Assembly (NCBI GenBank): GCA_965220655.1
Contig: CBDCQO010000011.1
Location: 39,134 to 103,133, forward strand
Direction of reading: 5' to 3'
DNA length: 64,000 nucleotides
Source of the DNA: Dehalococcoidia bacterium
GTDB taxonomy: Bacteria; Chloroflexota; Dehalococcoidia; Lucifugimonadales; Australimonadaceae
The notes under the pieces were generated by a model, which worked only from the letters and a program-made list of their open reading frames with translations, was not told the origin of the DNA and made no database searches. How positions within the stretch are numbered: the stretch's first letter is position 1; each line of letters starts with the position of its first letter. Shown piece after piece: positions 34,228-35,895 of the stretch. Made by a program: the position numbers and the translations under genes.

Positions 34228-35079
34228 GTGATGGGCTCGGTTCCGGGATACGGACTTCTGCTCCGAGCGGCAGCCGTTGCGCTGCTCGTGCTTGCGTTCG
34301 CCGCCTGCGAGGGCGCGACGCCCACTCCGGTGCCTGTTCCCACCAACACACCGGTTCCTGCTCCCACGAACACGCCCACACCGGTGCCTACCGATACGCC
34401 GACGCCCGCCCCAACGAACACGCCCACACTGGCCCCCGCCGACACACCGACGCCGGCGCCACAGCCTACCGACACCCCCACGCCGGCGCCCGGCGTCACG
34501 CCGCAGCCGACCGACACGCCTACTCCTACCCCGCCGCCAACGAACACCCCGACGCCGAGGCCGCAGCCGACCGACACCCCCACACCCCTCCCCACCGACA
34601 CGCCGACGCCCGAACCTGCGCCTGCGAGCGGCTGGCGCACCGACGTCGCCACCGGCTCCGGCGTCGGCGACCGCGCGACGGACGCCTCGCTGACGCTCGC
34701 CGACGGCTCCACTGCCACCATCGAGTCCGCCGCCGGAGGCCGGGCCGTCCTCCTCTACTTCTTCGCCACTTGGTGACCGTCCTGTAACGCCGAGTTACGG
34801 ACGTTAACCAGCCTCTACAACGACTACAGCAGCGACGTCGAGGTCGTGTCTGTCGCCTTCAACCAGAACGCGGACCAGCTCGGCGCGCACGCCGCGAGGC
34901 AGGGCTATGCGGGGGTGTTCGCCGAGGGTCCTGCATCACTCGTCCGCGACTACAACGTCCGCTCGCAGTCGTCGTGGGTCGGCATCGGGCGTGACGGCGC
35001 CATCCTCAACAGGCGCGGCTACGGAGCAGATGGCGCGTCCTTCTGGCGCGGCATCCTGGACACGCTGCGCGCATCGTAA
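34228..35079 (+). CDS. Thioredoxin-fold (TlpA/AhpC-TSA-like) lipoprotein with Pro/Thr linker; putative selenoprotein (UGA at 34774-34776)
   Basis: Lipobox [20 protein letters not shown] gives UxxC; the frame stays open to TAA at 35079; hairpin directly 3' of TGA. Confidence 0.85.
34778..34803 (+). promoter_or_regulatory. Candidate bacterial SECIS element
   Basis: CGTCC-(T)-GTAAC-[GCCGA]-GTTAC-GGACG, starting at +2 after TGA. Confidence 0.65.
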
Positions 35080-35265
35080 GCCTCTGGATTCCCGCCGGTG
35101 CGGGAATCCAGAGTGCGCGGGCAGCGCACACGGCGGAGAGTGGGGTTGGGTGGTCACCCTTGTTTTCGTCGTTGTGGCGTCGCAGCGCAGCGGCGGGTGA
35201 GGGCGGTCCACCCGCATTGACACTCCACCCGCCCGCGCCTAGCCTTACCCGCGAGCAGTGAACAC

Positions 35266-35895
35266 ATGACCACGCACAGCACATCCGTATCGCGCCTCGT
35301 CAGGGCGGGGGCAGCCCTGCTCCTGCTGCTGGCGACACTCGCCGCCTGCGGATCGGACCCCACCGCGACACCGGTGCCGCAGCCCACGCCAACCCCGGAG
35401 CCGGAGCCCACCGCCACCCCGCAACCGGCCTCGGACGGCATGGCTGCCGGAGGCTGGCGCTCCGACCTCGCCGTCGGCTCCGGCCACGGCGACCGCGCGG
35501 CCAACGCCTCGATAACGCTCGTGGACGGAACCTCCACAACGCTCGAAGAGGCTGCCGCGGGCCGGGGCGTCCTTCTCTACTTCTTCGCCACGTGGTGACC
35601 GACCTGCCGCGGCGAGGCTCGCACGCTGGACACCCTCTACGACGACTATAAGGACGATGTCGAGTTCATCTACGTCGCTTGGTCGGACCCCATCGCCAAG
35701 CTGGACTCCTATGCCGCGAGTGAAGGCTACGACTGGATATTCGCCGAGGCGGGGCCGGGCACGCCCCAGGACTTCAACATCCGCTCGCAGGCGACGTATG
35801 TCGGCATCGCGCCCGACGGCACCATCGTCGCCAGCAGCGGTGGCGGCTCCGGCAAGGACTGGCCCAGCATCCTCGACCAACTGAGTTCTACGTAA
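35266..35895 (+). CDS. Second thioredoxin-fold lipoprotein paralog; putative selenoprotein (UGA at 35596-35598)
   Basis: Lipobox [19 protein letters not shown]; the readthrough part (..FNIRSQATYVGIAPDG..) is homologous to paralog 1; TAA at 35895. Confidence 0.85.

Follow-up and report, generated by a model that had tools for sequence, protein, structure and literature searches.

Can two adjacent lipoprotein genes that both stop at a TGA codon, within what resembles a thioredoxin active site, be decoded as longer proteins containing selenocysteine (Sec, U), and what might such proteins do? The pair lies in a 64,000 nt stretch of DNA, hereafter the window, from a marine, SAR202-type Dehalococcoidia bacterium (contig CBDCQO010000011.1, positions 39,134 to 103,133 of the forward strand) whose genome comprises 2.8 Mb in 12 contigs, is 93% complete and has a G+C content of 66.5%. 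A first-pass annotation, made from the letters of the window, had proposed that the two genes encode hidden selenoproteins with a UxxC motif, tethered to the membrane as lipoproteins. The analysis described here makes it very probable that both are genuine selenoprotein genes, in which SelB-dependent Sec insertion would yield lipid-anchored, extracytoplasmic thiol:disulfide oxidoreductases, most likely reductases.

Reading frames that continue beyond a conserved TGA

The two genes lie in tandem on the forward strand and share the same layout of a signal peptide, a Pro/Thr-rich linker and a thioredoxin-fold domain. Their parts are as follows (positions in the window):

34228..35079, + strand: gene 1, full read-through coding sequence of 283 codons plus TAA, with a UPSC active site
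34228-34776, + strand: gene 1 open reading frame (ORF) as normally called, up to the TGA, ending in ...LLYFFATW
34774..34776, + strand: gene 1 putative Sec codon (TGA), encoding the U of UxxC
34228..34308, + strand: gene 1 predicted signal peptide, ending in the lipobox-like AFAAC, with Cys27 encoded by codon 34306-34308
34309..34623, + strand: gene 1 Pro/Thr-rich linker of ~105 residues, with PTDTPTP and PTNTPTP repeats
34624..35076, + strand: gene 1 thioredoxin-fold domain (AhpC-TSA/Redoxin) from Pfam matches, spanning the TGA
35266..35895, + strand: gene 2, full read-through coding sequence of 209 codons plus TAA, with a UPTC active site
35266-35598, + strand: gene 2 ORF as normally called, up to the TGA, ending in ...LLYFFATW
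35596..35598, + strand: gene 2 putative Sec codon (TGA), encoding the U of UxxC
35266..35349, + strand: gene 2 predicted signal peptide, ending in the lipobox ...TLAAC (LAAC), with Cys28 encoded by codon 35347-35349
35446..35892, + strand: gene 2 thioredoxin-fold domain from Pfam matches, the part used for the structure model

Gene 1 starts with either a GTG at 34228 or an ATG at 34231, and in gene 2 the linker that follows the lipobox is shorter, at ~32 residues. Both ORFs halt at a TGA, yet both frames go on, as PSC in gene 1 and as PTC in gene 2. Specifically, gene 1 has 100 more open codons after its TGA, PSC included, before a TAA at 35077-35079, and gene 2 has 98 more, PTC included, before a TAA at 35893-35895. 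These coordinates and sequences agree with the original description of a continuation of ~100 codons, and the downstream peptides quoted in it, including FNIRSQATYVGIAPDG, are present in the sequence. Homology between the downstream parts of the paralogs had also been claimed and is borne out, with the two read-through proteins sharing 48% identity over 167 residues in an alignment that crosses the TGA (E 4e-47).

Furthermore, in both proteins the TGA lies inside matches to the Pfam families AhpC-TSA, Redoxin, Thioredoxin_8 and Thioredoxin, all of them above the gathering scores. The scores of the two proteins were 44.6 and 38.0 bits for AhpC-TSA (PF00578; cut-off 26) and 44.1 and 45.9 bits for Redoxin (PF08534; cut-off 26.6). 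Because these matches cross the TGA in both proteins and the TGA column is shared by all 53 copies compared, as described below, the in-frame TGA pattern of the two genes is, on sequence grounds, far beyond chance.

A six-frame search of 41 related genomes recovered a homologue in 35 of them. Exactly one TGA was present in 59 of the 60 matches with E values of 2.1e-14 or lower, and the sole TGA-free match covers residues 1-49 only, upstream of the TGA. We then considered a codon alignment of 52 copies from 29 genomes, namely the genome of the window, 19 others of the same genus and nine from other families of the order. Every one of the 52 copies has its TGA in a single column, within the motif F-[FYM]-[ATF]-T-W-U-P-x-C. 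One further copy, the 53rd, comes from a 30th genome, which also belongs to the order, and carries the variant motif HSVH-U-PTC with its TGA in the same column. Identity among these 53 TGA-bearing copies goes down to 28%.

The codons on the two sides of the TGA evolve in a similar manner. Among 27 pairs of at least 70% identity, the ratio of non-synonymous to synonymous substitution rates (dN/dS, NG86) is 0.09-0.52 downstream of the TGA and 0.10-0.56 upstream. As judged from these alignments, the post-TGA codons are coding and under purifying selection. The first-pass annotation had argued that the TGA codons are unlikely to be products of random pseudogenisation, and the shared column in 53 of 53 copies together with the low downstream dN/dS values speaks for that argument. 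Homologues that truly end at FATW, with nothing conserved behind it, were not what the comparison returned; the downstream region is conserved.

Homologues carrying Cys in place of the TGA were recovered by a HMMER profile search of 1.84 billion protein representatives, from which 150 matches were listed. Full-length homologues with FFATWCPxCR on the TGA column are present, with up to 41% identity among the matches listed. In an alignment of ten full-length homologues (27-36% identity), the column corresponds to WCPxC in nine and FCPxC in one. The WCPPC motif of tryparedoxin, taken from the PDB, likewise aligns on WUPTC. These results place Cys on the TGA column, and they support the assignment of the TGA to a catalytic codon, namely that of the first Cys of WCPxC in proteins of the TlpA/ResA/tryparedoxin type.

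Searches of annotated proteins also revealed the fate of such genes in public protein sets. Among the 150 HMMER matches listed, 18 are fragments ending at residue 110, the last before the TGA. A word-indexed protein search returned seven truncated fragments only, six of which, 114-119 amino acids long, cover 31-34% of the query. Seen against the intact frames in the DNA, the fragments that end at residue 110 are gene-caller truncations, as the expectation that standard callers would truncate these genes had implied.

It is scarcely credible that the two genes are pseudogenes, or truly short lipoproteins that end at FFATW and are followed by a decaying remnant: standard gene calls do stop at the TGA and the public protein sets hold only such fragments (the seven and the 18 just mentioned), but the TGA is the same in every copy even at the lowest identity, selection downstream of it is no weaker than upstream, the genome has the machinery for Sec insertion, and a product ending at the TGA would, according to the structure model presented below, comprise the initial strands of the fold alone and lack the active site.

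The distribution of Sec and Cys forms was examined in an even sample of the class comprising 201 genomes. The 25 best matches (E values of 1.2e-39 or lower) all contain one TGA, whereas of the next 52 matches two contain one TGA and 50 contain none. Within this sample the sequences therefore describe a close clade that is Sec-only, Cys forms being confined to more distant relatives.

In another family of the class, all ten sampled genomes (G045, G089, G115, G136, G154, G171, G188, G205, G221 and G236) carry two TGA-containing copies ~1 kb apart. Because paired TGA copies occur in this family as well, the tandem arrangement is, from its distribution, either old or recurrent.

Probable decoding of the TGA as selenocysteine

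The proposal that the two genes encode selenoproteins depends on a Sec machinery, and all of its parts are present in the same genome. The tRNA-Sec gene scores 69.9 bits and is called by ARAGORN as tRNA-SeC with anticodon TCA, and selA (522.9 bits), selB (338 bits) and selD (391.6 bits) are all above their cut-offs. At the same time, TGA is the commonest stop of long ORFs in this genome (1726 of 3358), and seven family members terminate at a second TGA, located at the normal stop position ~100 codons past the first. Because TGA is the commonest ordinary stop, the codon counts indicate that it is not reassigned in this genome.

The selD gene (contig C12:689528-690448, locus L017) itself holds one in-frame TGA, and therefore SelD is probably also a selenoprotein in this bacterium, as far as its sequence indicates. 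A selA gene (Pfam SelA, E 2.1e-137) is among the 85 ORFs that neighbour distant homologues of the two genes (loci L096-L107).

Bacterial Sec insertion requires a selenocysteine insertion sequence (SECIS), and we examined the RNA that follows the TGA in an ungapped alignment of 48 nt from the TGA onward, comprising 32 distinct sequences; positions are counted from the U of UGA. A conserved hairpin is formed by positions +14 to +31, beginning 11 nt past the TGA, and consists of three pairs, a bulged A at +28 and three further pairs. Its loop is 5 nt long (+20 to +24), and the second loop base, G21, is invariant. Pairing is possible in 92.2% of the alignment cells, compared with 32-43% when the 3' partners are slid by one to three columns, and most of the unpaired cells in the lower stem are due to four sequences that lack the bulge and pair one register over. 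Two-sided changes are present in all six pairs; for example, C17:G27 in 21 sequences is replaced by G17:C27 in nine. The observed covariation score was reached by none of 500 shuffles.

The positions of the hairpins in the two genes are as follows:

34787..34804, + strand: gene 1 SECIS-like hairpin in the family-conserved register, with 6 bp, a bulged A and the loop AGUUA
35605..35632, + strand: gene 2 SECIS-like hairpin, with its core at 35609-35626 and the apical loop (A)GGC(U)

The conserved gene 1 hairpin has an energy of -9.1 kcal/mol when the fold is constrained to it, with a UGA-to-loop spacing of 16 nt. The gene 2 hairpin, with the loop AGGCU and a spacing of 16 nt, is the minimum free energy (MFE) structure (-11.4 kcal/mol), and its core pairs have probabilities of at least 0.92. 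A model of bacterial SECIS elements outlined in a 2026 review gives an apical loop of 3-9 nt, an MFE of -7.5 kcal/mol or lower, a G within the first two loop positions that is usually followed by G or U, and a UGA-to-loop spacing of 16-37 nt (PMC13188914). Loop size, loop G, spacing and energy of both hairpins lie within the constraints as outlined there. Thus, the SECIS whose presence would be expected for a selenoprotein has a candidate in both genes, in the form of a hairpin that follows the TGA and co-varies.

Several observations weigh against assigning this function to the hairpins. In gene 1, the single-sequence ensemble is dominated by a competing hairpin (34778-34803, loop GCCGA), whose energy of -13.1 kcal/mol makes it the more stable of the two; the conserved pairs are not the MFE structure in this ensemble and have a probability of ~0.001. 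Neither hairpin is exceptional when compared with shuffles of the local sequence (z -0.85 and +0.84), and an Rfam search of the region gave no match to a SECIS family, its sole match being a chance miRNA (E 0.55). In addition, the shuffle test for covariation is inflated by the kinship of the sequences and by coding constraint, and because of this the slid-partner control and the double changes are the stronger evidence.

These observations bear on whether the UGA might be read through or reassigned without selenium, such that Trp, Cys or Gly is delivered by a suppressor or near-cognate tRNA and the full-length proteins are made but are not selenoproteins. The identity of the inserted residue is indeed something that we infer, and the predicted hairpins do not stand out from local shuffles. 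In contrast, a codon that is the commonest stop of the genome, and that serves as a true stop in some members of this very family, is a poor candidate for general reassignment or suppression. The site also corresponds to the catalytic Cys of a CxxC motif, a position at which Sec is a known substitute, and tRNA-Sec, selA, selB and selD are present alongside a hairpin that co-varies and conforms to the published constraints. Decoding without selenium is, in our estimation, very improbable, and the sequence evidence points to Sec and not another residue at the UGA.

For the two selenoprotein genes we propose the following course of decoding. The stem-loop starting 11 nt past the UGA would recruit SelB with Sec-tRNA(Sec), Sec would go in at the first position of W-U-P-x-C, and the ribosome would read ~100 further codons to the TAA.

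Predicted fold, probable anchoring and probable activity of the proteins

The gene 2 domain (35446-35892) was modelled with AlphaFold2 from an alignment of 63 family members. The model is a single compact and complete thioredoxin fold, with a predicted local distance difference test (pLDDT) score of 93.2 and a predicted template modelling (pTM) score of 0.90. In this model Sec is residue 51 and is placed between a strand (41-47) and a helix (52-68), which is the canonical site of the attacking Cys. Foldseek comparison with the PDB gave ResA (4nmu and 1st9) as the top matches, with template modelling (TM) scores of 0.79-0.81. On these scores the modelled domain has the thioredoxin fold of the ResA/CcmG/TlpA group, with its extra N-terminal hairpin and central insert. 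Further top matches were TlpA-like proteins, Mycobacterium tuberculosis DsbF, Etrx2 (4hqz, TM 0.76) and CcmG (2b1k, TM 0.72), and weaker ones include 4hqs of the Etrx1/Etrx2 group (TM 0.63) and the thiol peroxidases 2yjh and 3drn. By sequence, the nearest solved chains are tryparedoxins, the best being 9fov_A (E 1.8e-9).

Features of the N-termini suggest that both proteins are lipidated and displayed outside the cytoplasmic membrane on a Pro/Thr stalk. Across the family, 42 of 51 distinct N-termini fit a lipobox pattern of our own, and four of the nine misses are cut by a locus edge. The genome also encodes lgt (148.3 bits) and lspA (76.5 bits). The two genes had been predicted to encode surface-exposed lipoproteins, and the lipobox and the Pro/Thr-rich linker stand in both; exposure at the surface is what these two features suggest.

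More than 20 further ORFs of the genome match gene 2 only in the signal peptide and the Pro/Thr linker, and therefore lipoproteins on Pro/Thr stalks seem, by sequence, to be common in this genome. A third genomic copy (contig C3:184890-185216), which has one TGA, was considered and set aside, since only its signal peptide and Pro/Thr linker match and it has no thioredoxin motif.

Together, these features are consistent with the following activity. The products would be lipid-anchored outside the cytoplasmic membrane on a Pro/Thr-rich stalk, with one thioredoxin-fold domain each, of the TlpA/ResA/CcmG/tryparedoxin type. Sec would be the attacking nucleophile, and the Cys three residues on would resolve the selenenylsulfide. 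The selenol/thiol pair would then act, in the manner of ResA, CcmG and Etrx proteins, on the disulfides of proteins outside the cytoplasm. Both the reductive direction of the reaction and the choice of extracytoplasmic disulfides as substrates are suggested by analogy with these proteins. Cytochrome c assembly genes are present in the genome, and the two seleno-genes are not adjacent to them. Because the genome has these assembly genes, a role of the ResA/CcmG type is possible.

A reductase role of this kind must be reconciled with a number of negative results. No NCBIfam model reaches its cut-off with either protein; the scores of the two were 37.7 and 43.1 bits for ResA (NF002854; cut-off 170), 27.7 and 25.2 bits for DsbE (TIGR00385; cut-off 123) and 26.7 and 24.3 bits for TlpA (NF047696; cut-off 230). 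Furthermore, the membrane electron donor DsbD_TM/CcdA (PF02683) was not found in this 93% complete genome. Among the 41 related genomes it exceeded the cut-off in one, which lies outside the genus. No genome of the genus gave a DsbD_TM match above the cut-off, even though several are single contigs, and one sub-threshold match was noted (G007). A match to DsbD_2 (PF13386) in the genome of the window was rejected as a donor; it is sub-threshold and falls in a His-rich, transporter-like ORF that lacks a Cys pair. VKOR and DsbB likewise gave no match in this genome, and because these partners are also not found, the lack of a known partner favours neither a reductase nor an oxidase.

The same results have to be considered for full-length selenoproteins of a different activity, either peroxidases resembling peroxiredoxin (Prx) and glutathione peroxidase (GPx) or oxidases that form disulfides in sortase substrates. 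AhpC-TSA is among the best Pfam families, thiol peroxidases appear among the weaker fold matches, no CcdA/DsbD donor was found, and a sortase gene is located directly upstream in the genus. Nevertheless, the top fold matches are the reductases ResA, TlpA-like proteins, DsbF and Etrx, and the motif W-U-P-x-C is unlike the TxxU/TxxC of peroxiredoxins. The sortase linkage is missing in 12 of 12 distant loci, which also have no neighbour family in common, and the cytochrome c assembly genes make a role available for a reductase of the ResA/CcmG type. A peroxidase or oxidase activity is unlikely on this balance, while retaining an appreciable share of our expectation.

One speculation, which we rate as rather improbable, is that this Sec-only clade of surface-anchored thioredoxin-fold lipoproteins works without the known membrane redox relays, given that CcdA/DsbD, VKOR and DsbB were not found, even in closed genomes of the genus. 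Its electrons would then come from, or go to, either a partner protein not yet described or a small-molecule thiol or peroxide outside the cell, and in the genus it would be coupled to a sortase-dependent surface pathway. The lack of a CcdA/DsbD-type donor is in any case a concrete and testable question.

The relation to characterised thioredoxin-fold proteins can be described by what is shared and what differs. With ResA, CcmG (DsbE) and TlpA, which provide the best structural matches, the two proteins share an active site at the start of helix 1 and a membrane tether. In contrast to these proteins, they have Sec for Cys and a lipid anchor for the transmembrane helix, score far below the NCBIfam cut-offs, belong to a genome in which CcdA/DsbD was not found, and are not encoded beside cytochrome c maturation genes. 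Pneumococcal Etrx1 and Etrx2 are also lipoprotein-anchored thioredoxin folds and a structural match; they are surface-exposed and use Cys, whereas the proteins described here would use Sec. The electrons of Etrx proteins come from CcdA proteins, and the enzyme that they serve is a methionine sulfoxide reductase at the surface. WCPPC proteins of the tryparedoxin and nucleoredoxin type provide the best sequence match among solved structures, with WCPPC aligned on WUPTC, but they are cytosolic and eukaryotic and have a different electron donor, such that only the domain is related.

Relation to known selenoproteins and genomic neighbourhood

Selenoproteins with similar motifs have been described since 2005. 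A survey of marine metagenome sequences published in that year reports Prx-like selenoproteins with UXXC, in 22 sequences (PMC1088965). In a 2008 marine metagenome study, the families enumerated include Prx-like 1 (pfam00578, UxxC) with 225 sequences, Prx-like 3 (pfam08534) with 68 and a thioredoxin (Trx)-like 2 family with 22 (PMC2398784). The family table of the 2026 review lists a 'Prx-like thiol:disulfide oxidoreductase' with PF00578 and UxxC (PMC13188914).

As these sources outline them, the Prx-like UxxC and Trx-like selenoproteins share with the present pair the thioredoxin fold, the AhpC-TSA/Redoxin signature, UxxC with Sec first, widespread Cys homologues and a SECIS directly past the UGA. 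This likeness is drawn from domain and motif descriptions, and no NCBIfam selenoprotein model covers the clade; NF041054, a ResA-like selenoprotein with WAxxUGC, scores 17.5 bits against a cut-off of 300, where the motif here is FFATWUPxC. The clade differs from those families by its N-terminal lipobox, its Pro/Thr stalk, the tandem pair and the Sec-only state of the close relatives sampled.

By the published descriptions, then, the recoding mechanism and the protein class are already known, and the two genes are further members, possibly ones that have been catalogued. A BSepDB table that other selenoprotein-rich organisms head gives Dehalococcoidia genomes figures of 49 and 46 (PMC13326102), and because such genomes figure in that table, these genes may already be included in the database. 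Within the literature library searched, we found no paper joining selenoproteins with SAR202. What goes beyond the textbook case is that the close clade has strictly retained Sec, that a lipoprotein anchor and Pro/Thr stalk are combined with tandem duplication, and that no recognisable membrane redox relay was found.

SAR202-type Dehalococcoidia are an abundant ocean and sponge-associated group. Wherever they occur, the genes are wrongly annotated as truncated lipoproteins, and in public protein sets they are represented only by versions that end at the TGA; therefore, inventories of the selenoproteome and of redox functions in these organisms under-count such genes. The retention of Sec in every close copy sampled, the frequent tandem duplication and the likely cell-surface site suggest a real demand for selenium in extracytoplasmic redox chemistry.

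The neighbourhood of the pair contains the following further features:

33402..34220, + strand: sortase-domain gene (Pfam Sortase, 61.6 bits), not a selenoprotein, with its stop 7 nt before gene 1
35082..35113, strand not assigned: perfect inverted repeat with 14 bp arms and a 4-nt loop, 3 nt past the gene 1 stop
36057-39161, - strand: TRAP transporter operon (DctM, DctQ, DctP), directly downstream of gene 2 on the opposite strand

Because the sortase stop lies only 7 nt before gene 1, the sortase gene is probably in the same operon as gene 1. A sortase gene is upstream in 28 of 37 same-genus loci, a count over two locus sets that overlap in genomes and include some short flanks, and within 4 kb in none of 12 distant loci. 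There is no obvious C-terminal sorting signal in either seleno-protein. Conserved neighbours were also considered as a clue to function and set aside, since no Pfam family occurs more than twice among the 85 neighbour ORFs of the 12 distant loci.

A scan for promoters and terminators around both genes gave nothing useful. The inverted repeat behind gene 1 may be a repeated palindromic element, or else a terminator that lacks a T-run; counting both strands, the genome contains 16 occurrences of its 14-nt arm. Finally, a Gly/Val-rich antisense ORF of 493 codons (33240-34721, - strand) overlies the sortase gene and the Pro/Thr linker of gene 1. This ORF mirrors the linker and is almost certainly spurious.

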